A stretch of 64,000 nt of DNA from an uncultured bacterium (GTDB lineage: Bacteria > Verrucomicrobiota > Kiritimatiellia > RFP12 > UBA1067), in NCBI GenBank assembly GCA_902779565.1, contig CACZCD010000006.1:11413-75412 (forward strand), given 5' to 3'. Below are positions 4,487-58,837 of the stretch, one piece after another. The notes beneath the pieces were generated by a model. The model did no database searches. It was not told where the DNA came from and saw nothing but the letters and a program-made list of their open reading frames with translations. A program made the translations under genes and the position numbers. Positions within the stretch are counted from its first letter, which is position 1. Each line of letters begins with the position of its first letter.

Positions 4487-4583
4487 CATGGCATTCGGTG
4501 CGCATGAGCCGCCACGGACGCGGCAGGAGCCGCGCCCGTGCCGAGCGAATCCCCACTGACAAGGCGCACCGACGAATGCCGCC
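4487..4583 (+). repeat. 95-bp structured dispersed repeat, copy A
   Basis: About 90% identical to the reverse complement of 58549-58640; long-range stem GGCATTCGGTGCGC / GCGCACCGACGAATGCC enclosing nested GC-rich hairpins. Confidence 0.8.
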
Positions 4584-4619
4584 GTGTCACGGAGCGGTGG
4601 GTATTGCGTGAGGGCGCGA

Positions 4620-37839: not shown

Positions 37840-38460
37840 ATGAAAAACGTGATTGATTTCGTGCGAGAGGTTCTCTTCTACGGCGCAGCCTGTTTGGTGT
37901 GGTCAGGGGTTGTACTCCTGGATGTCATGGTATTCAAGACCAATTGCGCAGAAAACGGCATTGTGGAGTCAAGTCAGCTTGTGGCGATTTTCGCAAGCGG
38001 TGTGTTGCTGATGGTGACGGCGGTGAAACATTCCGACAAGAGAGCGGGACTCGTCCTTGCCGGCGCATTCTTCATTGCGATGGCCATACGGGAGTTGGAC
38101 CAATTTTGGGATGGCGTCTGGCATGGCTTCTGGATAGTCCCGGAAATTGCCTTTTTGTCCGTAGTGGCTGCTTTTGTTCTATTCCACCGCAAAACAATTC
38201 ATCCTGGATTGAAAACTATCGCGGGAGATCGCGACTCGTCCGCTCTTTCCGTAGGAATTCTGATTGTTATGGGTTTTTCCCGAATCATCGGGCACAAGGC
38301 ATTCTGGAGGCTGCTTGCGCCGGGAGGTTCGTTTACAGTTCCGAAACGCTTCGCCGAGGAATCGTGCGAGTTGATAGGCTATTTTATTATTCTTGCATGG
38401 GCGATGAGATTCTTCTCACGCATGAGGGCTGAAAGAAAAAATGAAAATCGGGATCTATAA
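37840..38460 (+). CDS. integral membrane protein, hypothetical
   Basis: About 5 predicted TM helices. Confidence 0.5.
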   Translation: MKNVIDFVREVLFYGAACLVWSGVVLLDVMVFKTNCAENGIVESSQLVAIFASGVLLMVTAVKHSDKRAGLVLAGAFFIAMAIRELDQFWDGVWHGFWIVPEIAFLSVVAAFVLFHRKTIHPGLKTIAGDRDSSALSVGILIVMGFSRIIGHKAFWRLLAPGGSFTVPKRFAEESCELIGYFIILAWAMRFFSRMRAERKNENRDL

Positions 38461-39451
38461 AGACACTCTCGCCAATCGCCGTGGGGCGGATATGGCGGTG
38501 GAGAATCTCGCGTCTGCGCTTCAGGAGCGCGGCGCGAGATTTGGGGAACGGGGAATGGGGAGCGGGGAATGGGAAGTTGTCCTATTTGAGGAGCGCGAAT
38601 TCGAGGCTCGCATGAACGAACGGTGGGATGTCGTGATTTCCACCGGCACTAACGAACTCCTCGACCTCTACGACTATTTTTCTGTACGATCGACACGTTC
38701 TACACGGCTACCCCTATCCCCCGTTCCCCATTTCCCATTCCCCATAATCCAACAATTCCACACCAACCCCAAGAGCCAATTCAAGTGGAAACGGTTCGTC
38801 CGAAACTGGAAGATCAGAAGGGCGCTGCGCCACGTTGCCGCGATTCAGGTGTTGCGTGAAGAGGTCGTGCGGCAAGTTGCGAAGTATGGGCCGCCGGTTT
38901 CGGTGATCGGCAACTGGAGCGAATGGGAGGGACGGGCGCGGATGGAGCCGCCGAGGGGCCAGACAATTATCTATCCCGCCGTTTGGGGCAGGGGCAAGAA
39001 TCAGCGTCTTGCCGTAGAATCATTCGCTTCGGTTTCAAAGGATTTCCCGGGATGGTCGCTTGAACTCTATGGCAACGGGACTCCAACCTTCCCGCTGCCA
39101 GAGGGGGTGGTGCATAAAGGCTACTGCGATTTGGGTGCGGTTTATGCCTCCTGCGCATTTGTTGCATTTCCGTCGCTTGACGAGGGCTTCCCGCTGACGC
39201 TTGTTGATGCCGCAGCATTCGGCCGCCCGGCCGTTACAGTGTGCGATTGGGTCGGGGCCGCCGCCGTTGGCGGCGGAATCGTCGCCGAACCGACGGTCGC
39301 CTCCTATTCTGCCGCATTGCGGCGATTGATGTCCAGCGAAGAGCTGAGGTGCGAGATGGGAAGGGTCGCAAACCGATTCTGCCTGGAACGGTACTCCCGG
39401 AAGGTCATTTTGGACAAGTGGGAAACTTTGCTTGAAAGTGTGGTAAAATAG
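38441..39451 (+). CDS. glycosyltransferase family 4 (GT-B fold), N-domain carrying in-frame G-rich and C-rich repeat insertions
   Basis: C-terminal GT4 pattern (E..FP, FP.L.EGF, G.P.V); insertions at 38543-38574 and 38711-38744. Confidence 0.7.
   Translation: MKIGIYKDTLANRRGADMAVENLASALQERGARFGERGMGSGEWEVVLFEEREFEARMNERWDVVISTGTNELLDLYDYFSVRSTRSTRLPLSPVPHFPFPIIQQFHTNPKSQFKWKRFVRNWKIRRALRHVAAIQVLREEVVRQVAKYGPPVSVIGNWSEWEGRARMEPPRGQTIIYPAVWGRGKNQRLAVESFASVSKDFPGWSLELYGNGTPTFPLPEGVVHKGYCDLGAVYASCAFVAFPSLDEGFPLTLVDAAAFGRPAVTVCDWVGAAAVGGGIVAEPTVASYSAALRRLMSSEELRCEMGRVANRFCLERYSRKVILDKWETLLESVVK
38543..38574 (+). repeat. G-quadruplex-type tract GGGGAACGGGGAATGGGGAGCGGGGAATGGG, in-frame
   Basis: Encodes RFGERGMGSGEW. 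Confidence 0.8.
38711..38744 (-). repeat. same (GGGGAAY)n family in inverted orientation (C-rich on + strand), in-frame
   Basis: CCCCTATCCCCCGTTCCCCATTTCCCATTCCCC. Confidence 0.8.
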
Positions 39452-39465
39452 GCGCCCGTAAAAAC

Positions 39466-41436
<1,971 letters not shown>

Positions 41437-41493
41437 GGAATTTGCGGGCGGACCGTGCGCTGTTGCGCACCCCCTTGCGCGGAAAGAGCGCTT

Positions 41494-41512
41494 GTGCTAC
41501 AATACGCGCCGT
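41494..41512 (+). promoter_or_regulatory. promoter CTTGTGCTACAATACGCGCC for the aro supraoperon
   Basis: Consensus motif 18 nt upstream of the leader-peptide RBS. Confidence 0.5.
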
Positions 41513-41529
41513 TTAAGGCAAAGAAGGCA

Positions 41530-41604
41530 ATGAACGGACAGTTTAAGTTTGCGTGGTATTACTACTTCGGGTTTACGACCCGGAGCGGTTGCTCGCATGC
41601 TTGA
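41530..41604 (+). CDS. attenuator leader peptide MNGQFKFAWYYYFGFTTRSGCSHA (8 aromatic residues in 11)
   Basis: AAGAAGG RBS, ATG, run of F/W/Y codons, stop; followed by an alternative-hairpin region and a terminator. Confidence 0.6.
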   Translation: MNGQFKFAWYYYFGFTTRSGCSHA

Positions 41605-41634
41605 ACGGTCCCATGAACCGGATTCAGACTAAGC

Positions 41635-41671
41635 GACCCCGCTCCAGAAAAGAGCGAGGTCGTTTTTGTTT
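41635..41671 (+). terminator. attenuator terminator GACCCCGCTC-CAGAAAA-GAGCGAGGTC-TTTTTGTTTG
   Basis: 9 of 10 bp stem plus U-run; upstream GGAGCGG (41583-41589) can pair with CCGCTCC of the 5' arm as an antiterminator. Confidence 0.6.
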
Positions 41672-41710
41672 GAACGGGCCGCGAAACGGATTTAGAAAGG
41701 AACAAGAGAA

Positions 41711-42721
41711 ATGATCATCATATTGAAGAAGGACGCAGACCCCAAGCAGGTCGAGAGCCTTGTGAAGTGGCTGAAGGACCGCCACATCACGCCCAACATC
41801 AGCACCGGCGAGCGCGAGACGCTTATCGGCTGCATCGGTGACGTTGCGAAGATGGATATCGGTCTCGTTCAGGCGTTGAGCGTGGTCGAACGCGTTCAGC
41901 GGATCCAGGAGCCGTACAAGGCGGCGAACCGCAAGTTCCATCCCGAGGATTCGGTGGTGGATTGCTCCGGGGTGAAGATCGGCGCCGGGAACTTCCAGGT
42001 GATCGCCGGTCCCTGCAGTGTGGAGTCCGTGGAGCAGATGGTGGGGATCGCCAAGAGCGTGAAGGCGGCCGGCGCCACGCTTCTCCGGGGTGGTGCGTTC
42101 AAGCCGCGCACTTCGCCCTACGCGTTCCAGGGACTCGGCCAGCGCGGAATCGAGATCCTCCTTGAGGCGAAGAAGGAGACGGGGCTTCCCATCGTCACGG
42201 AGCTGATGAGCATCGAGCATCTGCCGCTCTTCAACGATGTGGACGTGATCCAGATCGGGGCGCGGAACATGCAGAACTTCGACCTGCTCAAGGAAGTGGG
42301 GTCGATGACGAAGAAGCCGATCCTTCTCAAGCGCGGCATGAGCGCCACGCTTCAGGAACTGTTGATGAGCGCGGAGTACATCATGGCGAGCGGCAACCCG
42401 AACGTGATGCTCTGCGAGCGCGGCATCCGCACGTTCGAGACGGCGATGCGCAACACGATCGATCTCACGGTGATCCCGATGCTGAAGCGTCTTTCGCATC
42501 TGCCGGTGGTGATCGATCCGAGCCACGCGACCGGCTACTCGTACCTCGTGGAGCCGTGCGCGATGGGCGCGACGGCCATGGGGGCGGACGCCCTCATCAT
42601 CGAGGTCCACAACGATCCGGCGCACGCCCTCTGCGATGGCGTGCAGAGCCAGACGCCTGAGATGTTCGCAGAGATGATGCAGAAGATCAACGCGCTGCGA
42701 CCCTATGCGTGGAAGAGGTGA
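41711..42721 (+). CDS. aroF: 3-deoxy-7-phosphoheptulonate (DAHP) synthase, type I-beta with N-terminal ferredoxin-like regulatory domain
   Basis: KDO8PS/AroA(Q)-family (beta/alpha)8 pattern ([24 protein letters not shown]). Confidence 0.9.
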
Positions 42722-42727
42722 TAACTG

Positions 42728-43016
42728 GTAGGTAATGTCGTAAAATTTGGGAAGATATCATGGGAAAACAGGGAGAGATTCTGGGGGCAGGAAGAAGTTA
42801 TGGGAAAACAGGAAGAGATTATGGGAATACAGGATGATATTACGAGAATGCGGAGTAAAAACTCCCCCTCTAAGATAGAGGGGGTGGCCGGAGGCCGGGG
42901 GAGTATGACGGGGGACGGAATCATACCCCTTCGCCCCTTCGGGGCACTCCCCCTGTCTCAGGGGGAGAGTTTGACATGCCATACCCAACTGTGTGACATT
43001 ACCAACTGATAACTGA
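42728..43016. mobile_element. MITE-like insertion: 9-bp direct repeats TGATAACTG, about 12-bp TIRs GTAGGTAATGTC/GACATTACCAAC, three 21-nt tandem repeats and three GC hairpins
   Basis: Seen in sequence between the aroF stop and pheA; contains a TTGACA -35-like box near its right end. Confidence 0.45.
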
Positions 43017-43061
43017 TAGATGATAACTGACAGATGATAACAGAAGGAGGAGAGACAAGAG

Positions 43062-44207
43062 ATGAATCTGAATGAGATACGGAGCGAGATTGATGCGATC
43101 GACGGCGAACTCGTGAAACTGTTCGTGCGGCGGATGGAAGCCTCCGAGAAGGTCGCGGCGGCGAAGCGCGGGAGCGCGACGCCTGTCCAGGATCCGGCTC
43201 GTGAGCGCGAGATCCTTGCGAAGGTTGCGAAGGCTGTTGGGCCGGACTTCGAGAACGAGGCGCGGCTCCTCTTCACCACATTGATGTCGATGTCGCGGGG
43301 ACGTCAGCGCGCCGAGTTGGCGGCGGACAACGCTTTCGTGAAGGAAATCGCCGCCGCAATCGCCTCCACGCCCGACCGCTTCCCTTCGTCTGCGACGGTC
43401 GCCTGCTCCGGTGTGGAGGGTTCCTACTCGCAGCAGGCCGTTTGTCGGCTCGTGCATTTTCCGACCATCTTCTACTTCAAGGGGTTTGATGACGTGTTTG
43501 CCGCCGTCGAGAAGGGCATGTGCGACTATGGCGTGTTGCCGATCGAGAACTCGGCGGTCGGCAGCGTGACCGCCGTCTATGACCTGATGGCGAAGCACCA
43601 CTTCAAGATCGTGAAGGCGATGAAGCTGCGCATCCGGCATGTGCTGCTCGCCGCGCCGGGCGTGAAGTTCGCGGATGTGAAGGAGATCTCGAGCCATCCG
43701 CACGCGCTGGCGCAGTGTTCGGCGTTCCTGCGCGAACAGCCCAATATCCGCGCGGTGCCGGCGACCAACACGGCGGCGGCCGCCGCGGAGCTGGCGAAGT
43801 CCGGCCGCCGCGACATGGCGGTGATCGCCTCGCGCGAATGCGCGGAGTTGTACGGGCTTGACGTGATCCGCGACGACATCGCGAACATCACAAGCAACTA
43901 CACGCGCTTCATCTGCATCTCGAATCGCGACGAGATCTATCCCGATGCCGACAAGTTTTCGGTGATGATGAGCCTGAACCACCGCCCGGGCGCGCTGACG
44001 GATGTCCTCGTGAAGTTCGCCGCCGCCGGGGTGAACCTCACGAAGCTCGAATCGCGTCCGGTGCCCGGTTCGGACTTCGAGTTCCGCTTCATCTTCGACT
44101 TCGAGGCGTCACCGCGCGATCCGCGTGTGGTGAAGATGCTCGCCGGCTTCACGGTGGATCCGGAGATCGAGCATTTCACGTTCCTTGGTGCTTACTCCGA
44201 AAGGTGA
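43062..44207 (+). CDS. pheA: chorismate mutase / prephenate dehydratase (P-protein) with ACT domain
   Basis: CM domain, PDT, ACT; strong AGGAGG RBS. Confidence 0.9.
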   Translation: MNLNEIRSEIDAIDGELVKLFVRRMEASEKVAAAKRGSATPVQDPAREREILAKVAKAVGPDFENEARLLFTTLMSMSRGRQRAELAADNAFVKEIAAAIASTPDRFPSSATVACSGVEGSYSQQAVCRLVHFPTIFYFKGFDDVFAAVEKGMCDYGVLPIENSAVGSVTAVYDLMAKHHFKIVKAMKLRIRHVLLAAPGVKFADVKEISSHPHALAQCSAFLREQPNIRAVPATNTAAAAAELAKSGRRDMAVIASRECAELYGLDVIRDDIANITSNYTRFICISNRDEIYPDADKFSVMMSLNHRPGALTDVLVKFAAAGVNLTKLESRPVPGSDFEFRFIFDFEASPRDPRVVKMLAGFTVDPEIEHFTFLGAYSER

Positions 44208-44220
44208 GACGTTTCCCGCT

Positions 44221-45276
44221 ATGACACGCATCCGAATACAGACGACGGTGCCGTACGAGGTGGAGATTGGCGCGGGCGTTTCCGTCGCCGCGCCCCAGTT
44301 CGTCCGCGAGGCGCTTCCCCGCGCGCGGAAGGTGGCGGTGGTGACGGATTCCAATCTTGAGCCGTTGCACGCCGTAGCGGTCGTCGCGGATTTTTCCGCT
44401 GCCGGATTTGAAACCGAGACGTTCGTGTTCCCCGCGGGCGAACGGTCCAAGACGCTCGCCACCTACGGTTCGATCCTGGACTTTCTCGCCGCGCACCGGC
44501 TCGACCGGACAGATGTGGTGGTGGCGCTCGGTGGTGGCGTGACGGGAGACATGGCCGGTTTCGCCGCCGCCACCTACAAGCGGGGTATCGCGTTCGTGCA
44601 GATTCCCACGTCTCTGTTGGCGATGGTGGATTCGTCCGTCGGCGGTAAGACGGGTGTGGATCTTCCTGCCGGCAAGAATCTCGTGGGGGCGTTCCATCAG
44701 CCGCGCGCGGTGTTCTGCGACATGGATTATCTGGCGACGCTGCCGGAGGACTGGCGCATGGATGGCATGGGCGAGGTGCTGAAATACGCGATCCTTGGCG
44801 ATGCCAATCTTTTCGCCAAGCTTGAACGTCAGCCGCGCGCACCGATCGGGGAATGCGAAATCGCCGAATGCGTGGGGATGAAGCGTGATATCGTGGAACG
44901 CGACGAGCGCGAAGGGAACGTGCGCAAACTTCTCAATCTCGGGCATACCTTCGCACACGCGATCGAGACGTTGAGCGGCTATGCGGTGTCGCATGGGCGC
45001 GCGGTCGCGACGGGGTTGGCGATGGCTGCGCGTGCGTCCGTGAAGGCGGGCGCGCTCGCCGCGCCGGAGAGTGCGCGCATCGAGGCGCTCGTCGCGGCGA
45101 TGGGCTATGCGACGCATGTCGAGTTCCCTACGGCGGCGCTCGTCGAGGCGATGTTGAGCGACAAGAAGGTGTCGGGCGACGCGATTGATTTTGTACTGCC
45201 CCAGACAATCGGAAAGTGTTTCGTGAAGCGGACGCCGCTCGCGGAGATCGGGAAGGTGGTTGAAGATGCCCGCTGA
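44221..45276 (+). CDS. aroB: 3-dehydroquinate synthase
   Basis: GGGVTGDMAGFAAATYKRGI and metal-binding His pattern. Confidence 0.9.
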   Translation: MTRIRIQTTVPYEVEIGAGVSVAAPQFVREALPRARKVAVVTDSNLEPLHAVAVVADFSAAGFETETFVFPAGERSKTLATYGSILDFLAAHRLDRTDVVVALGGGVTGDMAGFAAATYKRGIAFVQIPTSLLAMVDSSVGGKTGVDLPAGKNLVGAFHQPRAVFCDMDYLATLPEDWRMDGMGEVLKYAILGDANLFAKLERQPRAPIGECEIAECVGMKRDIVERDEREGNVRKLLNLGHTFAHAIETLSGYAVSHGRAVATGLAMAARASVKAGALAAPESARIEALVAAMGYATHVEFPTAALVEAMLSDKKVSGDAIDFVLPQTIGKCFVKRTPLAEIGKVVEDAR

Positions 45277-46333
45277 CGGGAAACGGAAAACCATTCTGCC
45301 TGGTCCGCGTCAAGGGCGCGTGACCGTGCCATCCTCCAAGTCGATCGCCCACCGCGAACTGATCGCGGCGGTCTTGAGCGGTGTGGAGGAGCCGAAAATT
45401 CGTGGCACCTCGAAAGATATCGAGGCCACGCGCCGGTGCTTGGCGGCAATGCAGGCGGGCGATCCGGTCTGGCCCTGCGGCGAGAGCGGCTCCACGCTCC
45501 GTTTCCTCACGCCTCTTGCGGGGGTGATGGGATGGAAGGGACGTTTCCAGTGCGAAGGGCGGTTGGCGGAACGGCCGCAGATGCCGTTCGAGCGGAAATC
45601 GCGATATGTCGTGCCGGGCAACGTGTCGTCGCAGTTTGTCTCGGGGCTTCTGATGGCGTTGCCGTTGGCGGATTGGGACAGTGAGATCGTTGTGGAGGGA
45701 GCGCTCCAGAGCGCGGCCTACGTGGCGCTCACCGAGGCGACGCTGCGTGCGGCGGGATTGAAATTTGAGAAGCCCGCCGCCGGACATTGGAAGATCCCCG
45801 GACATCAGCGTTACCAAATTGCGGGTGGGCGTACGGTGGAGGGCGACTGGTCGCAGGCGGCGTTTTTCTTGGCGATGGACGGCGTAACGGTTGACGGACT
45901 TGACGCGCACTCGCTTCAGGGTGACCGTGCGGTGCTGGAGCTTCTCGGGAAATCGGTCGTGGATGCAGGGCCTGTCCCCGATCTCATTCCCGCCCTTGCG
46001 GCGCATGCCGCCGGACGGGAAGGATGTTCACAGTTTATAAACTGTGGACGTCTGCGGCTCAAGGAAAGCGACCGGCTTGAATCGACGGCGGCGATGATCA
46101 ACGCCGTGGGGGGTGAGGCGCGGATTGAAGGGGACACGTTGATTGTGCAGGGCGTGAAACGGTTGCGTGGCGGGGAGGTCCAGACGATGGGGGATCACCG
46201 TATCGCGATGTCCGCCGCCGTTCTCGCGTGTCGGGCGGAGGGGCCGATCATCGTGGACGATGCGACGGTCGTCGCGAAGTCGTATCCGGCCTTTTGGGAA
46301 GATTTCGAACAGTTAGAAAGGGAGGAGCCATGA
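45260..46333 (+). CDS. aroA: 3-phosphoshikimate 1-carboxyvinyltransferase (EPSP synthase), compact 357 aa
   Basis: SKSIAHR, ESGSTLRFL, RLKESDRL, GDHRIAM motifs; TTG start per ORF track. Confidence 0.85.
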   Translation: MKMPADGKRKTILPGPRQGRVTVPSSKSIAHRELIAAVLSGVEEPKIRGTSKDIEATRRCLAAMQAGDPVWPCGESGSTLRFLTPLAGVMGWKGRFQCEGRLAERPQMPFERKSRYVVPGNVSSQFVSGLLMALPLADWDSEIVVEGALQSAAYVALTEATLRAAGLKFEKPAAGHWKIPGHQRYQIAGGRTVEGDWSQAAFFLAMDGVTVDGLDAHSLQGDRAVLELLGKSVVDAGPVPDLIPALAAHAAGREGCSQFINCGRLRLKESDRLESTAAMINAVGGEARIEGDTLIVQGVKRLRGGEVQTMGDHRIAMSAAVLACRAEGPIIVDDATVVAKSYPAFWEDFEQLEREEP

Positions 46334-47340
46334 ACAGCACCTACGGAACAAACTTCCGCGTGGCGATCTTCGGTGAATCGCATGCGCCGGCGATTGGCGT
46401 GGAGATCGAGGGCGTGCCGGCGGGGATGAAGATCGACCGCGACGCGTTGCAGGCGTTCCTCGACCGCCGTGCGCCGGGACGCGATGCGTATTCGACGTCT
46501 CGCCAGGAGGCGGACATCCCGGAGTTTCTGTGCGGCGTGAAGGAGGGCGTCGCCACGGGTGCGCCGCTCGTGGCGATCATCCGGAATGGCGATACACGTT
46601 CGAAGGATTATGGTAACCTGGCGAATGTGCCGCGTCCGGGTCATGCGGACTATCCCGCCGAGGTGCGTTTCAAGGGACATCAGGACAAGGCCGGCGGCGG
46701 ACATTTCTCCGGTCGGCTGACGGCGCCGCTGTGTATCGCGGGCGGGATTGCCCTTCAGCTGCTGGCGCGTGCGGGCGTGACGATTGAGGCGCGTGCGGTT
46801 CGTATCGGCGGCGAGACGGATCCCGAGAAGATGAAGGACGCCATTGCCGCCGCGCGTGCTGAAGGCGATTCGGTGGGCGGCGTGGTCGAAGCGACGGTGA
46901 AGGGGCTGCCGGTCGGTGTGGGTGACCCGATGTTCGGCGGATTGGAGAATCGCATTGCGCAGGCGGTGTTCGGTATTCCGGCGGTGAAGGGAATCGAGTT
47001 CGGCGAAGGGTTCGCCGCCGCCGAGCTGAAGGGCAGCGAGAACAACGACCCTTACGGAATTGTCGAGGGACAGGTGACGCCGCTCACGAACCATGCGGGC
47101 GGGATTTTGGGTGGGCTCTCCACCGGCGCGCCGCTCGTGTTCCGCGTGGCGTTCAAGCCGACGCCGTCCATCGCCAAAGAGCAGGACTCCGTCGATCTCT
47201 CAACACGGACACCGGTGAAGCTTGTGGTGAAGGGACGCCATGATCCGTGCGTGGTGCTGCGTGCCGTCCCGTGCGTTGAGGCGGCGGCGGCGATTGCGCT
47301 GTACGATGCGATCCTCGAGTGGCGGAAGGAGCCCGCATGA
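46330..47340 (+). CDS. aroC: chorismate synthase
   Basis: FGESHAP...G.P.G N-terminal signature and RHDPCV motif; ATGA-coupled. Confidence 0.85.
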   Translation: MNSTYGTNFRVAIFGESHAPAIGVEIEGVPAGMKIDRDALQAFLDRRAPGRDAYSTSRQEADIPEFLCGVKEGVATGAPLVAIIRNGDTRSKDYGNLANVPRPGHADYPAEVRFKGHQDKAGGGHFSGRLTAPLCIAGGIALQLLARAGVTIEARAVRIGGETDPEKMKDAIAAARAEGDSVGGVVEATVKGLPVGVGDPMFGGLENRIAQAVFGIPAVKGIEFGEGFAAAELKGSENNDPYGIVEGQVTPLTNHAGGILGGLSTGAPLVFRVAFKPTPSIAKEQDSVDLSTRTPVKLVVKGRHDPCVVLRAVPCVEAAAAIALYDAILEWRKEPA

Positions 47341-48113
47341 CGATCGGCATCCGGGGCATGGGGCTGATTGGCGGCTCGTTTGAAAAGGCGTTCGCGCGCG
47401 CAGGGCATCGCGTGGTGAACCTCAAGGAGGCGTCTGCCGCCGACATCCGTTCGTGCGGACTCGTCATCGTGTGTCTGCCGCCGCTGATGGTCGCGCCGTG
47501 GATCGAGGCGCATGCGGCGGAGTTCGCCGACGACGCAATCGTCACCGATGCGGCGGGCGTGAAGGGCGTGGTGTGCGCGGCGTTGGCCGATCTCGCCCGA
47601 AAGGTTCCGTGGACCTATGTGGGCGGACATCCCATGGCGGGAAAGGAACGGAGTGGCTACGAAAACGCCACCGCCGATCTCTTCAAGGGCGCGTCGATGA
47701 TCTTCACGCCGTACGCGGGGGCAGACCCTGCCGTCCTCGAACGGTTGAAGGCGCTGTTCGCGGAGGCGGGGTTCGGTCGGTTCGTCGTCACCGATCCCAA
47801 GCATCACGACGAGATGATCGCGTACACGAGCCAGCTCGCCCATGTCGTTTCGTCGGCGTATGTGCGGGATGAACTGTCCGCGCAGCATCTCGGTTTCTCG
47901 GCGGGCAGCTATCAGGATATGACGCGCGTGGCGACGGTCAATCCCGAGATCTGGACGGATCTCTTCCTGTCGAACCGTGGCGCGCTGGAGGCGGTGCTGA
48001 CGCGTCTCATCGATCGGCTGTCGGGTTACCGCGATGCGCTGCACGCCGCCGACGCCGAGAAGCTGCGCGCGCTGTTGGCGGAAGGGCGCGCCGCCAAGGA
48101 ACGCGTGCATTGA
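47337..48113 (+). CDS. tyrA: prephenate dehydrogenase
   Basis: Rossmann GMGLIGGS plus PDH pattern (HPMAG). Confidence 0.8.
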   Translation: MTIGIRGMGLIGGSFEKAFARAGHRVVNLKEASAADIRSCGLVIVCLPPLMVAPWIEAHAAEFADDAIVTDAAGVKGVVCAALADLARKVPWTYVGGHPMAGKERSGYENATADLFKGASMIFTPYAGADPAVLERLKALFAEAGFGRFVVTDPKHHDEMIAYTSQLAHVVSSAYVRDELSAQHLGFSAGSYQDMTRVATVNPEIWTDLFLSNRGALEAVLTRLIDRLSGYRDALHAADAEKLRALLAEGRAAKERVH

Positions 48114-48126
48114 ATCGGGAGGTGTT

Positions 48127-49290
48127 ATGTCGTTGAAGTGCGGATTGCTGGGCGAGAAACTGGGACACAGCCGGTCGCCGGAGATACACCGGAAGCTGGG
48201 CGGCTACGAATATCGCCTTTACGAAAAGACGCCAGCGGAGGTGGAGGAGTTCCTTCTACGGGGCGATTATGATGTCCTTAATGTGACGATCCCTTACAAA
48301 AAGGTCGCCTTTGGACTTTGCAAGGAGGTTTCGCCCGTCGCCGCCGAACTGGGGAACGTGAATGTGGTCGTGAAGCGGATGGACGGCACGCTCTTCGGCG
48401 ACAACACCGACAAAGCGGGTTTCGAGAAACTGGTGTCGCTCGTGGGGGTGTCGGTGAATGGCCAGAAATGTGTGGTGCTGGGCACGGGCGGCGCGGCGAT
48501 GACGGCAGCGGCGGCGTTGCGCGGATTGGGCGCGGGCGCGGTCGTTCACATTTCGCGTTCAGGTCCGGACAACTACACCAATCTGGAGCGCCATGCCGAT
48601 GCGGCGATCCTCGTGAACGCCACGCCGGTAGGGATGTTCCCGTATGTCGAAGATCAACCGGTTTCGCTTTCGGCGTTTCCGCGCTGCGCGGCGGTGATCG
48701 ATCTCATCTACAATCCGTCGCCCACGAAACTGTTGGCCGAGGCGGCCGCGCGCGGTATCCCGCAGGTGGGCGGGCTGCCGATGTTGGAGGAACAGGCGCG
48801 GCTTGCCAGTGTGTACATGAACGCCAACCTTTATCTCTATGGCGCACCTGGCTCTGGCAAATCGACGTTCGGGCGGCAGCTGGCTGCCACCAAGGAGATG
48901 CCGTTTGTCGATCTGGATGATGAGATTGAAGCGCGTGACGGACGGAAGATCGCAGACATCTTCGCGCAGGACGGGGAGGCGGCGTTCCGTGCGATTGAGA
49001 AGGCGGCGTTGAAGCGCGTTTCCGCCACGCCCGGTCAGGTTGTTGCGTTGGGCGGCGGTGCGCTGCTCGCCCCCGAATCGCGGCAGGTGGCGGAGGCAAC
49101 GGGTCGTGTGATCTTTCTGGAGTGTCCGGAGGAGGAGCTGGTGCGCCGTGTTTCGTTGTCTCAGGCGCGGCCCTTGCTGGCTGGTGAGGCGGCCAAGCGT
49201 CTTCATGCACTGCTCGCCGCCCGCCACGACCACTACGCCTCCTTCAAGGAGCGGATCAAGACAACGCCCGAACGCGTACCGCGTCACTGA
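48127..49290 (+). CDS. aroE/aroK: bifunctional shikimate dehydrogenase / shikimate kinase fusion
   Basis: N-terminal AroE pattern (SRSP, NVTIPYK, NTD, GTGGAA); C-terminal Walker A GAPGSGKST and shikimate-kinase lid; GGGAGG RBS. Confidence 0.85.
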   Translation: MSLKCGLLGEKLGHSRSPEIHRKLGGYEYRLYEKTPAEVEEFLLRGDYDVLNVTIPYKKVAFGLCKEVSPVAAELGNVNVVVKRMDGTLFGDNTDKAGFEKLVSLVGVSVNGQKCVVLGTGGAAMTAAAALRGLGAGAVVHISRSGPDNYTNLERHADAAILVNATPVGMFPYVEDQPVSLSAFPRCAAVIDLIYNPSPTKLLAEAAARGIPQVGGLPMLEEQARLASVYMNANLYLYGAPGSGKSTFGRQLAATKEMPFVDLDDEIEARDGRKIADIFAQDGEAAFRAIEKAALKRVSATPGQVVALGGGALLAPESRQVAEATGRVIFLECPEEELVRRVSLSQARPLLAGEAAKRLHALLAARHDHYASFKERIKTTPERVPRH

Positions 49291-49487
49291 ACCGCAGGCG
49301 CGGAGCAGGGCTTTGCGCGGTTTATCGGGGGCGTGGTTCAGTGACGCAGCTTCGATGGAGGTCTTCCGGGCCACCACCTTGACGTTTTGAGCCGACTGTG
49401 GTACAGTATCCGTCGTTGTGCAAAATAGCACAATGCTTTTTCGCACAACGCCAAACAGTGCAATGTGATTTTAAAGAGGAGTGAGAT

Positions 49488-50594
49488 ATGAGTCCATTCA
49501 AGTACGGCTGCACGGTCAGTGATGAATTCTTCTGTCCGCGCCCTGAGCTTGAGCGTCGCCTTGCCGGGCACATCAAGTCAGGTCAGCATGTGGCGGTTGT
49601 CGGTCCGCGCCGGACTGGCAAGAGTTCGCTTGTTTTGGAGACAGCCCGCAAGGCAAAAGGATATTCGTTGTTTCACGTTGATTTCCTTGATGTACGCAGC
49701 CGTGCCGAAATGTGCAAGCGAATGGTGGCGTCCCTTTCGCGGCTTGAAGCGACGGATTCATGGTTTTCAAAGATGATGAAGATGCTTGTTCGCCTGAGGC
49801 CCACGCTTTCCATCGATCCGCGAGACGGCTCGCCTACCATCTGCATCGACACGCGGGAGGCGGCAGCCCTTGGTTCTCTTGATTGCATCCTCGATGCCCT
49901 TGTCGCGCAGACGGCACGGCGCAAGGTTTGCGTTGTCCTTGACGAATTTCAGGATATAATGGATCTTGATGACGGGGAAAATGTCCTGGCGATAATGCGT
50001 TCGCGCATTCAGCTGGATTCCCGCACCCCCTATATCTTCCTTGGTAGCGTCCGCCACAAGATGCTGGACATTTTCCTGGACTCCCGCAGTCCGTTCTACC
50101 ATGGAGCGGCGCTGTTTGATGTCGGAGACATCAAGGCGGACGACTTCTACCGTTTTCTTTGCCGTCGGTTTGCCGTTGGCAGGCGCTCCTTTCCGCGAGA
50201 GTCTTTTGATGCCATTGCCGCAGCCGTGCGCAACACGCCCGGCTACATCCAGGAAGTAAGCGATGCGCTATGGCAGTCGAGCAAAGCTGGCGACACGCTG
50301 CAGGTGTCAGACATAGCAAAGTCCCTTGATGTCATTTTTGCCCGTGAAAGTGAACACTACTCCTTTGCAATCAGGCAGCTGACTGCGCTTCAGGTACAGG
50401 TTCTTACGGCGATTTCCACGCGAGGCGGGAAGGAGATATATTCTGGCGATTTCCTGACAGCCGCAAGTGTTAAAAGTACCGCCTCGGTGAAGCGAGCGAT
50501 GTCAAGACTTATTGATGAGGGGTTGGTGTATTTCACCGATGGCGAATACCGGATCGACAATCCATTTTTCGCGGAATGGGTGAAGCGTCGATAG
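49488..50594 (+). CDS. AAA ATPase (archaeal-type ATPase_2-like) with C-terminal DUF234-like winged helix
   Basis: Walker A GPRRTGKS, Walker B VVLDEFQ; lower-GC gene. Confidence 0.7.
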   Translation: MSPFKYGCTVSDEFFCPRPELERRLAGHIKSGQHVAVVGPRRTGKSSLVLETARKAKGYSLFHVDFLDVRSRAEMCKRMVASLSRLEATDSWFSKMMKMLVRLRPTLSIDPRDGSPTICIDTREAAALGSLDCILDALVAQTARRKVCVVLDEFQDIMDLDDGENVLAIMRSRIQLDSRTPYIFLGSVRHKMLDIFLDSRSPFYHGAALFDVGDIKADDFYRFLCRRFAVGRRSFPRESFDAIAAAVRNTPGYIQEVSDALWQSSKAGDTLQVSDIAKSLDVIFARESEHYSFAIRQLTALQVQVLTAISTRGGKEIYSGDFLTAASVKSTASVKRAMSRLIDEGLVYFTDGEYRIDNPFFAEWVKRR

Positions 50595-50656
50595 GAGTTG
50601 ATTGCCCGTACTCGGTCTGCGTTCCATCCGGTGGCCGCCCCATGCACTCGACGCGC

Positions 50657-50673
50657 CGTTTTGTGGTATAATT
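50657..50673 (+). promoter_or_regulatory. promoter TTTTGTGGTATAATTGGGG
   Basis: Consensus motif. Confidence 0.45.
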
Positions 50674-50698
50674 GGGGGCAATTACGAGGAGGATTCAA

Positions 50699-51046
50699 AT
50701 GACGATAGCAGATGTAGTGAAGGTTCTGAACGGAAAACTGATGGCAGGCGATGCGGCGAGTCCGCGCGTGGTCGGTGCCGTGGTGGCGAACGACCTGATG
50801 AGCGACGTGCTGCTTTTTGATGCGGACGATGCGCTCCTGCTCACGTCGCTCGCGAGCGACCAGGCGATCCGCACGGCGCACATCGTGGGCGCGATGGGCG
50901 TGGTAGTGCACAACGCAAAGCCGCTTTCCGAAACGATGATCAAGGTCGCGAACGATCTCCATATCCCGCTCGTGTCGTCGCCGCTCTCGAAGTACGACGC
51001 GTGCGTGAAGATGCATGACGCCCTGGAGATGGAGAATAGAGCTTAG
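50699..51046 (+). CDS. DRTGG domain protein
   Basis: 115 aa; DRTGG-like pattern with conserved Asp/Gly positions. Confidence 0.55.
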   Translation: MTIADVVKVLNGKLMAGDAASPRVVGAVVANDLMSDVLLFDADDALLLTSLASDQAIRTAHIVGAMGVVVHNAKPLSETMIKVANDLHIPLVSSPLSKYDACVKMHDALEMENRA

Positions 51047-51086
51047 TGGCTAGTGGTTAGTGATTAGTGGTTAGTGGATAGTGGCT
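51044..51086 (+). repeat. six tandem heptamers TAGTGGC TAGTGGT TAGTGAT TAGTGGT TAGTGGA TAGTGGC
   Basis: Begins at the TAG stop of the DRTGG gene and ends 1 nt before the ATG of the CBS-GHKL gene. Confidence 0.85.
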
Positions 51087-52118
51087 ATGGAAAACTATAC
51101 GCCTACGATCATCACCGGCGAGCAGCAGCAGGACGACGAGATATTCGCGAAGATTCCGGCCTTCGATGCGGACGGTCAGGCGGGGCATGTGACCCTCCCG
51201 AGCGGCGACGGCTCCGTGATCATCATGGAACTGCTGCAGCGGTTCAAGGTGCGCGACGTGATGAAGCGCACCGTCATCTCGGTTTCGCGCGGCACGAAGA
51301 TGCGCGAGGCGCAGCGGATCATGCGCGAGAACCGCATCTCGGGACTTCCCGTCTCGGAGGAAGGGCGGCTGTTCGGGATCGTTTCGGTGAACGACATCAT
51401 CAACGCGCTCGACAACGGCTGGATCGATGAACCGTGCGAGAACCACATGGCGAGCAGTCTGGTGGTGTTGGAGGCCGGCATGCCGCTTGCCTATGCGCTC
51501 CGCTACTTCAACAACTACACGTACGGACGCTTCCCGGTGCTGGACTCCTCGCGCAAGCTCGTGGGGATCATTTCGCAGCGCGACGTGATGCGCGCGCTCC
51601 TCTATGAGCTTTCCGTCGAGATCCGCAAGCTGGAACGCAAGGCGGCGCGCGGCACGAACGCCGGACCGGAGCATGCCTCGGGCGAGAACTACTTCCGCAA
51701 GGAGTTCGCGGTGGTGCACAATGATCTCGGCAGCGCCGGACGCGCGGCGAACGAGATCAAGCAGATTCTGAAGGAGCGCAAGATCGACCGTTCCATCGCC
51801 CGTCGCGTGGCCGTGGCCGCCTACGAGCTTGAGATCAACATCTGCATCCATTCGCACGGCGGCATCCTTACGTTCATTTTGGCGGACGACAAGATCACGA
51901 TCCGCGCGAAGGATCGCGGTCCCGGCATTCCGGATATCGAATGGGCCTGCCGTGACGGCACCTCCACCGCGAACGACTGGATCCGGTCGATGGGCTTCGG
52001 CGCCGGCATGGGGCTTTCGAACTCCAAGCGCGTGTCGGACGAGTTCGACATCAAGTCTGAGGTCGGAAAGTTCACGCAGGTGACCTGTGTGTTCAGCCTT
52101 TCGGCGAAACAAGAATAG
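51087..52118 (+). CDS. CBS-pair plus GHKL (HATPase_c, RsbW/anti-sigma-type) protein kinase-like regulator
   Basis: Two CBS motifs; C-terminal GHKL N, G1 and G2 boxes (EL.IN, DRGPGIPD, GFGAGMG). Confidence 0.75.
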   Translation: MENYTPTIITGEQQQDDEIFAKIPAFDADGQAGHVTLPSGDGSVIIMELLQRFKVRDVMKRTVISVSRGTKMREAQRIMRENRISGLPVSEEGRLFGIVSVNDIINALDNGWIDEPCENHMASSLVVLEAGMPLAYALRYFNNYTYGRFPVLDSSRKLVGIISQRDVMRALLYELSVEIRKLERKAARGTNAGPEHASGENYFRKEFAVVHNDLGSAGRAANEIKQILKERKIDRSIARRVAVAAYELEINICIHSHGGILTFILADDKITIRAKDRGPGIPDIEWACRDGTSTANDWIRSMGFGAGMGLSNSKRVSDEFDIKSEVGKFTQVTCVFSLSAKQE

Positions 52119-52129
52119 GGAGAAAAACA

Positions 52130-54784
52130 ATGATACGAATCTACCTCGCGACGGCGGTGGCGGCGTTCGCCTTTGCCGGCCGCGCCGCGAACTTGATCCA
52201 GAACGCAGATCTTTCCCTCGACGACGGAATGGGCGGCGTGCTGGGCTGGAGCGACATGGCCAAGTCGGATTGCGGCATCGAGGCGCACAACTCCGCGCCC
52301 GGCACGATGACGATCACGTTCACGGGCCAGGAGCGTTCCTACTTCAGGCAGTCGCCGCTCGCGCTCAAATCGGGCGGACGGTTCCGCCTCAGCGCGGAGG
52401 TGCGGACGGCGGGGCTCGGCGGCGCGGCGTTCCAGCTGTTGCTCTGGGATAGCGGATGGCACCGCGATGTGCGGTCAAAAGAGTTTCCCGACGATACGAA
52501 GGGCGAATGGGTTCGCGTGTCGTGGGAAGGGAACATCATGAAGAGCGAGATCCCCGATGGGTACACGGTCGGCATCTGCGGTGACGGTGGAACCAACGGG
52601 ACGGCATGCGTGGAGGTGCGAAACTTCACGCTTGAACCGCTCGATGACGAGACGGCACGCGAGTCGCCGGGGCTTCCGGCGTCGCTCACCCGGAGGATAC
52701 CGATCCGCATCGTGCCGATCGAGCCGCTGCTGTCGCGCGTCTGTGCGAAAAGCGGTGCGTTCACCTTCTACTGGCCGGGCACCCCCGCATGCGACATCCA
52801 GTCCTGCACGCTGAAGGCGTCAGTTGACGGCGCTTCGCCGCTTGAGACGAAGCTTGGGGCGGACGGGCGCGCGCAGGTCGCGTTCGGTCGCATCCGGGTG
52901 GGCGAACACCGTCTCGCGGTGTCGGTCGTCGCGCCGGACGGGAAGACGCTCGCGGAGAACGACTACCGGTTCCAGTCCTGTCCGCCGCTGCCGAAGGGAC
53001 CCGAAGGCAAGCGACTCAACAACTTCGTGACGGAGCTTGTGAACCAGCCGCTCGAGAATGGGGAGGTGCAGTTCTTCCGCCCGACGGCGGGCTGGGTGTG
53101 GATTTCGTTTGAGGGGACGGATCGCGCCGCGCGCGGCTTCCTCGACGGCTGCGCCGTGCCGGCGGTGGAATGGCGGCTGGGCGACCGGCGCCATGAGACG
53201 ATGCGCGATGTGGCGGCGGGTTGGCACACGCTCAAGGTGACGGGCGCGACCGGCGGCAAGCTGCGCATCCATGCGGTGAAGGTCATCGCAACGACCCTCT
53301 GGCCGCTTGCGACGGGACCGTGTGACTTCTCGAAGGGACGGTACAAGTTCTCATTTGCATTCGCACGTCGCTTCCTGATGTCGATGAACACGGTCAACGG
53401 CGCGGAGGCGTTCCTGCGCGTGCGGAACAGTCCGGAGGTGGCGTACTACGCGTCGCGCGGTTTCGGATGCTTCGGCGGCGTGAACATCAAGACCTCCTCG
53501 CCGGTGTGGGTGAAGCCGGAGGAGCAGTGGCAGAAGCTGACGGAGGGGTCGTGGTCGCTTGGACACGACGTCTCCGTGGACGAAAGCCAGATCCATGCCG
53601 GGCGCCAGCAGCACCTGATCTTTGCCGAGAACGTGTGGAAGATGTACGAGCAGCGTCCGGCCCAGCGCGTGAACCTCTACTGGGGCGACGCCACGGAATA
53701 CTGGTACAGCGATCCGAAGGGACACGTGACGGAACTCATGGCGATGGCGAACACGGGCAACGGGCGGGGCGTCGTGCTGCCCGAGACGTATGCGCCGGTG
53801 CTGCGCACCGCCGAAGAGACGGATCGCTGGATCGACCTCTTCGCGCAGCAGGTGAAATCGTTGGGCGAGATCGCGCCGGGTGCGCGGGAGATGACGGTGT
53901 ACAACGTGTCGCCGTGGGTCAATCTGGGGCACTGGAGCGACTATCCGTGTCCGGAAGGGGACATCAAGGCGCACTTCGCGCGCATGATCCAGGCCTTCGC
54001 GACGCGTCCGGAGTTCGCGGCCAACAGCGGCATCGCCGCCGGGGCGTCGGGGGCGGCCGAAGAGGAACTGCGCCGCTGGCACTCGCGTCTTTTCCGCTAC
54101 TACGCGATCGAGGGCGGCACCGAGAATCTGGCGGACGTGTATGGCTTCCGCTGGGCGCCGGGGTTTGTGAAGAACTGCGACTTCGCGGAGGGGCTTGAAG
54201 GCTGGACGGCGACGCCGGCCGCAGGCGGCGAGGTGCGGCACGTGCGGCTGGACAAGTATGGAACCCGTGTGCAGGGCCGCAAGAAGGTGCCGGTGGGAAC
54301 AGGTGATGATGTCGCCGAGTTCGTGACGTCTGAGAAGGGCCCGAACCGTCTCTCGCAGAAGATCACGGGTCTGGAGCCGGGGCGGTACTACGCGCTCATG
54401 TTCTGCGCGCCGAACGCGGCGAATCTTGACAAGGCGACGGCGTCGCCCCTGCCGCTCGCGTTCTCCGCGCGGTTGGAAGGTGCCGAGGAGATTGCGGGGC
54501 TGCGCTTCCGCCACATCGTCACCACACGGCGGAAGCCGAAGGGGTCGGGTCCGAAGGAGAATGTGTATCTGGCGATCTACCGCTATGTGTTCCGTGCGAA
54601 GGCGGCCGAGGCGACGCTGACGTTCAAGGATCGCGCCGAGGACGGCTCCGCGCTTGCCGCCGGCGGTCGACAGGCGCTCAATTACATCATCTTCCGTCCG
54701 TACTATGTGGAGTCGCCCGAGGAGGTCGAGGAGCTTGTCGACATCATCGCAGGCCATGATCCGGTTTACGACGGGAAGAAATAG
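52130..54784 (+). CDS. large secreted hypothetical protein (884 aa)
   Basis: Signal peptide MIRIYLATAVAAFAFAGRAANL; no recognisable family from sequence alone. Confidence 0.6.
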   Translation: MIRIYLATAVAAFAFAGRAANLIQNADLSLDDGMGGVLGWSDMAKSDCGIEAHNSAPGTMTITFTGQERSYFRQSPLALKSGGRFRLSAEVRTAGLGGAAFQLLLWDSGWHRDVRSKEFPDDTKGEWVRVSWEGNIMKSEIPDGYTVGICGDGGTNGTACVEVRNFTLEPLDDETARESPGLPASLTRRIPIRIVPIEPLLSRVCAKSGAFTFYWPGTPACDIQSCTLKASVDGASPLETKLGADGRAQVAFGRIRVGEHRLAVSVVAPDGKTLAENDYRFQSCPPLPKGPEGKRLNNFVTELVNQPLENGEVQFFRPTAGWVWISFEGTDRAARGFLDGCAVPAVEWRLGDRRHETMRDVAAGWHTLKVTGATGGKLRIHAVKVIATTLWPLATGPCDFSKGRYKFSFAFARRFLMSMNTVNGAEAFLRVRNSPEVAYYASRGFGCFGGVNIKTSSPVWVKPEEQWQKLTEGSWSLGHDVSVDESQIHAGRQQHLIFAENVWKMYEQRPAQRVNLYWGDATEYWYSDPKGHVTELMAMANTGNGRGVVLPETYAPVLRTAEETDRWIDLFAQQVKSLGEIAPGAREMTVYNVSPWVNLGHWSDYPCPEGDIKAHFARMIQAFATRPEFAANSGIAAGASGAAEEELRRWHSRLFRYYAIEGGTENLADVYGFRWAPGFVKNCDFAEGLEGWTATPAAGGEVRHVRLDKYGTRVQGRKKVPVGTGDDVAEFVTSEKGPNRLSQKITGLEPGRYYALMFCAPNAANLDKATASPLPLAFSARLEGAEEIAGLRFRHIVTTRRKPKGSGPKENVYLAIYRYVFRAKAAEATLTFKDRAEDGSALAAGGRQALNYIIFRPYYVESPEEVEELVDIIAGHDPVYDGKK

Positions 54785-58493: not shown

Positions 58494-58548
58494 TTCCTCT
58501 CGCTGCGGTGCTTCGGAAGGATGCACTTTCGGGGACCCCACCCTTCAA

Positions 58549-58640
58549 GGCGGCATTCGTCGGTGCGCCTCCACAGTGGGGATTCGCTCGGCACGGGCGC
58601 GGCCTGCGCCGCGTCCGTGGCGGCTCATGCGCACCGAATG
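58549..58640 (-). repeat. 95-bp structured dispersed repeat, copy B (inverted relative to copy A)
   Basis: Reverse complement matches 4487-4583 with a few substitutions. Confidence 0.8.
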
Positions 58641-58837
58641 ATATGTAAAGCCGGGAGCGGAGGCGGCTTGCCTGTTTTGAGGGACGCCCGGAATGAGCCA
58701 CGCCAAACGGTGCGTTGACAAGGGCGTGGCGAATGAAGGGTGGGATCCCCAAAACAGGCAACCGCGCAGCGAGCGGCTCCCCGCCTGCCGTTCCGTGACG
58801 TAGTGCAACTTGAGAGGTGACGGCATGGAATCGGCTG

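Follow-up and report, generated by a model that had tools for sequence, protein, structure and literature searches.

Classical ribosome-mediated attenuation of transcription, in which a leader peptide is the sensor, is best known from Proteobacteria and Actinobacteria. An element of this type was analysed in silico upstream of aroF in an uncultured member of the Kiritimatiellae. It lies at 41494-41710 of a stretch of 64,000 nucleotides (nt) from contig CACZCD010000006.1 (assembly GCA_902779565.1); the whole stretch is called the window, and coordinates without a locus name refer to it. A preliminary description, made from the sequence alone, had proposed an attenuator of the trp/pheA type. This was backed by every in silico test, namely the conserved open reading frame (ORF), its codon run, three helices and their covariation, and a classical attenuator very probably controls the aroF-led cluster of aromatic amino acid genes.

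The four-region model established for Escherichia coli trpL and pheL is summarised in PMC11802643. The window element follows the same logic as pheL-pheA and trpL-trpEDCBA: an ORF with codons for the pathway products, a 1:2 hairpin, a 2:3 antiterminator, a 3:4 terminator, and a stop codon at which the ribosome blocks region 2. It differs from these leaders (Rfam Phe_leader and Trp_leader) in having no detectable sequence or covariance-model similarity to them, and in a codon run that mixes Phe, Tyr and one Trp where theirs serve a single amino acid. It also differs in its targets, which are the first enzyme of the common pathway plus the Phe and Tyr branches rather than one terminal branch, and in its host, which belongs to the Planctomycetes-Verrucomicrobia-Chlamydiae (PVC) group and is not a proteobacterium.

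The closest functional precedent is aroR of Corynebacterium glutamicum, a mixed Phe/Tyr leader (F-Y-F) before aroF, the gene of 3-deoxy-D-arabino-heptulosonate 7-phosphate (DAHP) synthase. As the work of Neshat et al. (2014) is described in PMC11802643, stalling in aroR raises transcription, and in that description only Phe limitation had an effect. The likeness is drawn from this description and is a functional resemblance only. The window run is longer (8 aromatic codons of 11), includes a Trp codon, and belongs to a leader family that spans gut Clostridia and Kiritimatiellae. Surveys of the Breaker laboratory predicted a Phe upstream ORF (uORF) before aroF in Acholeplasma (uORFC-13-1; PMC8632094) and two F/Y uORFs before shikimate genes (PMC6429828). 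Their layout is the same, with a predicted promoter, a ribosome-binding site, a short Phe(/Tyr) ORF and a terminator upstream of aroF or shikimate genes. They occur in other taxa (Acholeplasma and the five genomes of the study) and have fewer regulatory codons; they were compared by description, and Rfam 15 either lacks them or gave no match to them here.

T-boxes share with the window element the target (amino acid genes), the terminator/antiterminator read-out and the tRNA-charging signal. A T-box, however, binds uncharged tRNA directly and needs no ORF, and the window element, at about 140 nt and mostly ORF, is too small for one. Rfam searches of 16 kb of the window (38000-54000, E <= 10) gave no relevant match, neither Phe_leader, Trp_leader nor T-box, and 20 related loci gave no match at the gathering score. 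T-box (RF00230), known leader families and known riboswitches were rejected on these grounds. In the literature search, no description of this leader family was found for Kiritimatiellae, Verrucomicrobia or Clostridia.

Leader peptide and alternative RNA structures

The following features make up the leader region:

41475-41480, + strand: -35-like hexamer TTGCGC, 3/6 match, 17 nt upstream of the -10 hexamer
41493-41503, + strand: extended -10 element TGTGCTACAAT, with the -10 hexamer TACAAT at 41498-41503
41521-41527, + strand: purine-rich, Shine-Dalgarno-like AAGAAGG, read from the sequence
41530-41604, + strand: leader peptide ORF MNGQFKFAWYYYFGFTTRSGCSHA, 24 codons, ATG at 41530 and TGA at 41602-41604
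41542-41574, + strand: regulatory codon run F-K-F-A-W-Y-Y-Y-F-G-F, codons 5-15, from the codon list
41536-41611, + strand: 1:2 hairpin (anti-antiterminator), -38.7 kcal/mol, with the aromatic codons as 5' arm and region 2 as 3' arm
41565-41571 and 41579-41585, + strand: conserved core of the 1:2 hairpin, CUUCGGG with CCCGGAG, predicted pairing
41582-41596, + strand: region 2, 5' strand of the antiterminator, GGAGCGGUUGCUCGC, within the 3' part of the leader ORF
41582-41645, + strand: 2:3 antiterminator hairpin, 64 nt, -22.5 to -24.0 kcal/mol
41631-41645, + strand: region 3, 5' arm of the terminator, common to the antiterminator, predicted pairing
41652-41671, + strand: region 4, with the 3' arm of the terminator (41652-41665) and the T-run TTTTTGTTT (41663-41671)

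The 24-codon ORF and the predominance of Phe, Trp and Tyr among its eleven central codons had both been noted before and were both read in the sequence; the run at 41542-41574 holds 4 Phe, 3 Tyr and 1 Trp codons. The ORF begins 27 nt past the -10 box and ends 106 nt short of aroF, on the same strand. The control set comprised every ATG ORF of 8-50 codons in the window, on either strand. Among these 851 small ORFs, only the leader contained at least 6 aromatic residues per 11 (score 8, runner-up 5). The fold of 41505-41680 reached -77.2 kcal/mol, compared with -51.8 +/- 4.7 kcal/mol in dinucleotide shuffles (z = -5.4). Both results argue against a chance ORF. The regulatory codons are cognate to the end products of the operon, since the common pathway, pheA and tyrA are encoded downstream.

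Because of its weak -35 hexamer, the leader promoter escaped the consensus scan; conservation was used instead. In an alignment of five sequences (the window, L180, L181, L161 and L082; relatives at 80-99% DAHP synthase identity) CTTGCG and TGTGnTACAAT were invariant and the flanks diverged, in agreement with the extended -10 promoter proposed earlier.

The GC hairpin with U-run that had been seen after the leader stop corresponds to a stem of 41631-41644 with 41652-41665, with 13 base pairs, a single C.A mismatch and a loop of 7 nt. Its energy is -18.8 kcal/mol (-21.4 when extended), and it was also called by the terminator consensus scan. The pairing of GGAGCGG with CCGCTCC (41639-41645), on which the preliminary description had based the antiterminator, was found as well; GGAGCGG itself lies at 41582-41588, one position ahead of the 41583-41589 given there. 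The antiterminator is larger than first described and occupies 10 of the 13 paired bases of the terminator 5' arm (4.4 in shuffles). That the two structures are mutually exclusive, as had been proposed, is borne out by the shared strand 3 and by compensatory changes in both helices.

In the absence of a ribosome, the transcript up to 41651 folds as the 1:2 hairpin, and GGAGCGG is bound by the arm of aromatic codons. With these codons masked and region 4 absent, 41582-41596 pairs with 41633-41645, so that the 2:3 hairpin forms. Masked folds of full length always gave the terminator and were uninformative; they were replaced by folds ending before region 4, which expose the antiterminator.

For the ribosome, a footprint of about 12 nt downstream was taken as the textbook value. 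As long as the A site has not passed F13 (41566), the ribosome edge lies at about 41580 and region 2 is free; at the stop codon, most of region 2 and its extension is covered. A short ORF, cognate codons, terminator, antiterminator, anti-antiterminator and the corresponding placement of the stop codon were all found in this one leader.

Conservation and covariation in related loci

Related loci were fetched via relatives of the DAHP synthase from species-representative genomes (L001-L080) and metagenomes (L081-L160). The metagenome scan gave few close relatives, and L161-L186 were added by exact-protein look-ups of Kiritimatiellae homologues at 86-99% identity. A blind scan for ATG ORFs with at least 6 aromatic residues in 11, followed by a hairpin and a T-rich tail, found an aromatic leader ORF with hairpin and T-run in 142 of 173 loci. 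Same-strand sequence totalling about 1 Mb gave about six off-target ORFs. Of the 148 aromatic small ORFs scanned, 144 were followed by a T-rich tail behind a hairpin of -8 kcal/mol or stronger. After removal of duplicates, there were 117 distinct leader peptides with an aro gene as the next gene downstream, namely aroF (110) or pheA (7). Their length ranges from 12 to about 45 amino acids (aa); sequence and length are not conserved, and the F/Y composition is. The aromatic run is thus conserved and the stems covary (see below), and the lack of conservation that would have spoken against the preliminary description was not seen.

Most loci belong to gut and rumen Clostridia (Oscillibacter, Faecousia, Ruminococcaceae, Lachnospiraceae and Christensenellaceae), in which the usual gene order is aroF-tyrA-aroB-aroA. 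Among named homologues, those closest to the DAHP synthase come from Kiritimatiellae metagenome-assembled genomes (MAGs), and the contig itself recurs identically in a metagenome assembly (L186). Leaders of the Kiritimatiellae form a recognisable sub-family with the motif F.FAW.YYFGF..RSG:

L082: Kiritimatiellae leader MNTFKFAWFYYFGFTAGAACAC
L161: Kiritimatiellae leader MKGLFKFTWRYYFGRRVQSG
L162: Kiritimatiellae leader MNENFQFAWFYYFGFMPERGRSC
L171: Kiritimatiellae leader MINYFKFARYYYFGFMSERGLAY
L001: Kiritimatiellae leader MRKYFEYTRFYYFGFSRRSGVAYT
L003, 534-669: aromatic leader MNKQFSLYFAWYYGSGRTRGVGAI with terminator, from a Kiritimatiellae/'Verrucomicrobia' MAG

The leader of L003 stands about 2.4 kb upstream of aroF at the head of pheA-aroA-aroF, from which it follows that the attenuator stays at the head of the cluster when the gene order is shuffled. 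The first aro gene behind the leader is aroF in L161, L171-L173 and L176, and pheA in L162-L165, L168 and L179. The genes upstream vary and include a CBS/HATPase gene, a flavin adenine dinucleotide (FAD) oxidoreductase gene and, on the other strand, a type II secretion system ATPase gene. The leader follows the aro cluster, not the neighbourhood.

In the window, the gene upstream of the leader encodes an ATP-binding cassette (ABC) exporter:

39466-41436, + strand (the strand of the leader): ABC exporter gene

The hairpin lies about 200 nt past the end of this gene, and no other terminator was called between them. It could on that account be read as the terminator of the exporter gene, or as a constitutive insulator, with the aromatic ORF arising by chance. 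This is scarcely credible, given that a conserved promoter stands between the gene and the hairpin and that the upstream gene differs among relatives while leader and terminator stay with the aro genes. An ORF of this kind, moreover, has a chance of about 1 in 851 in the window and yet recurs in most of the loci scanned.

For codon-level comparison, 14 close Kiritimatiellae leaders were anchored on the in-frame Y-F-G codons. The positions of the run vary between TTT and TTC or TAT and TAC (synonymous), or exchange F and Y, and stay aromatic, a pattern that points to translation of the leader. The codons also bear on the possibility that the switch is real and is thrown by something other than a ribosome, such as a T-box-like tRNA contact, a small-molecule riboswitch or a protein of the TRAP or PyrR kind, the ORF being incidental. 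Helices alone do not reveal what flips them, and Firmicutes generally use T-boxes or TRAP for aromatic and aminoacyl-tRNA genes (PMC1262725). Such a trigger is nevertheless highly unlikely here. Synonymous and F/Y changes have left start, frame, stop position and aromatic codon identity intact, which only translation explains. In addition, the regulatory codons lie precisely within the anti-antiterminator's 5' arm, a ligand would find no sizeable conserved unpaired RNA domain to bind, and Rfam offered no candidate in the window region or the 20 related loci.

The best 11-residue spans of the 117 distinct leaders contain 421 F, 412 Y and 22 W, and W occurs within this span in 20 leaders. In the 14 close relatives the Trp position is TGG in 7 and otherwise CGC, CGA, GGC or TAC (R, G or Y). 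From this composition and the semi-conserved Trp position, the family would be mainly a Phe and Tyr sensor, with Trp at most a clade-specific addition. An operon with pheA and tyrA and without trp genes fits Phe/Tyr sensing. DAHP synthases with a ferredoxin-like domain are sensitive to feedback by Tyr and Phe, which also fits.

Covariation was assessed in 16 distinct Kiritimatiellae sequences. When full leaders were aligned with plain MAFFT, region 2 of the three most divergent sequences was out of register; regions 2, 3 and 4 were therefore cut by the anchors GCGG, CCCGC and CG[AG]G[GA], not by structure. The two helices scored as follows:

Antiterminator: 13 pairs, 78.8% of cells paired, double changes at 8 pairs, 0 of 500 shuffles as high
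Terminator: 12 pairs, 87.5% of cells paired, double changes at 7 pairs, 0 of 500 shuffles as high

When the partners were slid by 1-3 columns, pairing fell to 36-53% for the antiterminator and 34-52% for the terminator. The shared strand co-varies with both partners. Position 41643, for example, is U facing A and A in regions 2 and 4 of the window, G facing C and C in L003, and C facing G and G in L002. The terminator pair A41636-U41660 of the window is G-C in most relatives.

RNAalifold, applied to a plain MAFFT alignment of 17 full Kiritimatiellae leaders, independently returned the terminator and a hairpin CUUCGG:CCGGAG. This hairpin, the anti-antiterminator core, links the Y/F-F-G codons with the beginning of region 2. 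Geometry is conserved as well: in 17 of 18 leaders, region 2 starts 21-26 nt ahead of the last base of the stop codon. Over 124 distinct leaders of the whole family, the antiterminator compared with a shuffled upstream strand gave a median z of -1.38, and 37% of leaders reached p <= 0.05 (5% expected). Most Kiritimatiellae leaders had z values from -2 to -5.7.

It is very improbable that the small ORF encodes a functional aromatic or hydrophobic micropeptide (a membrane peptide or toxin) and that the hairpin is its own terminator. Small hydrophobic peptides are common, and the ORF is conserved with a recognisable peptide motif in the Kiritimatiellae. The C-terminal part of this motif, however, coincides with the RNA strand GGAGCGGGG, which pairs and co-varies with the terminator, and across the distinct leaders only the F/Y composition is kept. 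The element is invariably found just ahead of aro genes and in their orientation, and a stand-alone gene would have no use for an alternative antiterminator. Codon conservation, the absence of an Rfam match, the intervening promoter and the linkage to aro genes together disfavour the micropeptide, the non-ribosomal trigger and the upstream-gene terminator.

Proposed mechanism and points against it

Under classical attenuation, the extended -10 promoter at 41493-41503 would start transcription about 20 nt ahead of the leader ATG, and a ribosome would translate the 24-codon leader. With Phe-tRNA, Tyr-tRNA and possibly Trp-tRNA plentiful, it would reach the stop codon at 41602 and cover region 2 (41582-41596). 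If the leader were not translated, region 2 would be locked in the 1:2 hairpin. In either case the 3:4 terminator (41631-41665 and U-run) would form, and the polymerase would halt before aroF. When charged aromatic tRNAs are scarce, the ribosome would stall between F5 and F13 (41542-41568), melt the 1:2 hairpin and leave region 2 free. Region 2 could then pair with region 3 (41582-41645) before region 4 is made, and the polymerase would read into aroF and beyond. The energies of the three helices fit such a kinetic model. Of the parts on which this scheme draws, the ORF with its codon bias and the alternative helices were found in silico, as were their conservation and covariation.

Several points weigh against the scheme. 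We infer that the leader is translated, that ribosomes stall in it, that transcripts end at the U-run and that amino acid supply sets the outcome. At equilibrium with region 4 present, the terminator wins whatever is masked, so the switch must be kinetic, as in the trp model. The window antiterminator, with 7 bp and 4 bp around an internal loop, is less perfect than those of relatives, and on its own it does not differ significantly from shuffles (z = -1.4, p about 0.1). The U-tracts of many relatives are weak, for example GCCGUUUCUUCGU. For some Kiritimatiellae relatives with 73-87% DAHP synthase identity (L004, L083, L084, L166, L167 and L170), the fetched DNA contained no such leader, which makes the device dispensable. 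The window leader has a single Trp codon, and this is not conserved. Of the joint sensing of Phe, Tyr and Trp that had been suggested, the Phe/Tyr part agrees with the conserved run, and the Trp part is put in doubt by the rarity of Trp, by the variable TGG position and by the lack of trp genes. A spacer of 340 nt with a promoter-like site between aroF and pheA may uncouple pheA to aroE/K from the attenuator.

A further point concerns the start of translation. The motif AAGAAGG, earlier taken as the ribosome-binding site, is present in the 5' untranslated region (about 20 nt) of the window leader, but only 2 nt separate it from the ATG, unusually short for a Shine-Dalgarno sequence. Other relatives carry a TTGAC(A/C/G) -35 and a TAAACT/TATAAT -10 just 8-11 nt ahead of the leader ATG, without a Shine-Dalgarno sequence:

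L162, 1429-1476: near-leaderless type
L168, 1598-1645: near-leaderless type
L171, 2782-2829: near-leaderless type
L172, 2803-2850: near-leaderless type
L176, about 905-950: near-leaderless type
L179, 1536-1583: near-leaderless type

The leader peptide of these six loci is probably translated from leaderless or near-leaderless mRNA. Because of the atypical spacing, and because several relatives lack a Shine-Dalgarno sequence, initiation at the window leader ATG, too, is a step that we infer.

Downstream genes and wider reading

The genes downstream of the attenuator were assigned by Pfam, and the order aroF-pheA-aroB-aroA-aroC-tyrA-aroE/K of the preliminary description was confirmed:

41711-42721, + strand: aroF, DAHP synthase with N-terminal ferredoxin-like regulatory domain (PF18152 and PF00793, E 4.7e-70)
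42722-43061, no strand: repeat-rich spacer between aroF and pheA, 340 nt, outside the attenuator, from sequence repeats
43062-44207, + strand: pheA, chorismate mutase / prephenate dehydratase / ACT (PF01817, PF00800, PF01842)
44185-45276, + strand: aroB, 3-dehydroquinate synthase (PF01761, PF24621)
45260-46333, + strand: aroA, 5-enolpyruvylshikimate-3-phosphate (EPSP) synthase, short form, about 355 aa (PF00275)
46228-47340 (ORF as listed), + strand: aroC, chorismate synthase (PF01264, E 1.1e-115)
47319-48113, + strand: tyrA, prephenate dehydrogenase (PF02153, PF20463)
48034-49290 (ORF as listed), + strand: aroE/aroK fusion, shikimate dehydrogenase N-domain and shikimate kinase (PF08501, PF01202)

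The Pfam match of aroC begins at residue 43 and the L161 orthologue has 336 aa; the true start is probably near 46330. The start of aroE/K is probably also later than the listed 48034. The EPSP synthase of the clade has about 350-357 residues, compared with the usual 430 or so, and its Pfam match falls into three stretches. Orthologues of 339-357 aa are similar in length to that of the window:

Window, 45260-46333: short EPSP synthase
L161, 12227-13291: short EPSP synthase
L168, 5812-6864: short EPSP synthase
L173, 5185-6240: short EPSP synthase

The spacer between aroF and pheA consists of short tandem repeats and GC hairpins. A unit of about 36 nt occurs three times at 42750-42846, repeats resembling GATAACTGA lie near 43007-43045, and GC hairpins stand between these blocks. 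The consensus scans called a promoter-like site at 42718-42746; within the spacer, they called no terminator-like site on the + strand. The spacer of strains with 99% identical DAHP synthase measures 218-222 nt and carries different heptamer arrays (GATTGGN... and ...CCAACTA); in L161, a 93% relative, aroF and pheA are just 3 nt apart:

L180, 3015-3232: spacer counterpart
L181, 3015-3236: spacer counterpart
L161, 10014-10017: spacer counterpart

The spacer is a hypervariable repeat element, and judged by the consensus match it may hold an internal promoter at 42718-42746. That the attenuated promoter serves all seven genes in one transcript is plausible. One leader for seven genes, as first proposed, accordingly agrees with the gene order and is made uncertain by the spacer and its promoter-like site.

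Repeats were also observed elsewhere in the window. G-rich heptamer arrays (GGGGAAC/GGGGAAT) occur at 8412-8461 and 38524-38573. A hairpin of about 200 nt at 38543-38743, with arms of heptamer repeats and their complement, gave a spurious microRNA match in Rfam; its architecture resembles that of the aroF-pheA spacer, and both may represent a genome-wide intergenic repeat-hairpin element. An inverted repeat of 100 nt (4487-4586 and 58546-58645) is 90% complementary, with arms 54 kb apart and no tRNA overlap; ARAGORN found no tRNA genes in the window.

A covariance model built from Kiritimatiellae leaders alone found no second copy in the window, only the leader itself. On Clostridial leaders it gave weak full-length matches (E 2e-4 to 0.5), which shared ancestry and convergent constraints could each explain. 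Behind four Kiritimatiellae genomes, the best further genome matches of the DAHP synthase are from gut Clostridia (56-65% identity), not from other PVC bacteria. These matches, together with the same type of aromatic leader in those Clostridia, hint at a transfer of the operon with its attenuator between phyla.

The window element is real, very probably an ordinary case of classical attenuation in a new phylum, and part of a large family without an Rfam entry. A wider reading is put forward tentatively, as possible rather than probable. It would place all these leaders in one large uncatalogued Phe/Tyr attenuator family of aroF-led shikimate operons, present in more than 100 lineages of gut Clostridia and in a Kiritimatiellae clade, and possibly moved between phyla with the operon. 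Kiritimatiellae would have added a semi-conserved Trp codon (three-amino-acid sensing), and some members would be leaderless.

The mechanism itself is not new. In the sampled Clostridia and Kiritimatiellae (173 loci), no other device was found upstream of aroF as often as this kind of attenuator. A curated Rfam model would improve the annotation of many MAGs and would keep leader ORFs of 12-45 codons from being taken for small-protein genes. The mixed F/Y(/W) run is a natural case of one attenuator integrating several amino acids and useful for synthetic biosensors. For the uncultured gut and rumen lineage of the Kiritimatiellae, the element provides a testable regulatory annotation of the aromatic amino acid genes.

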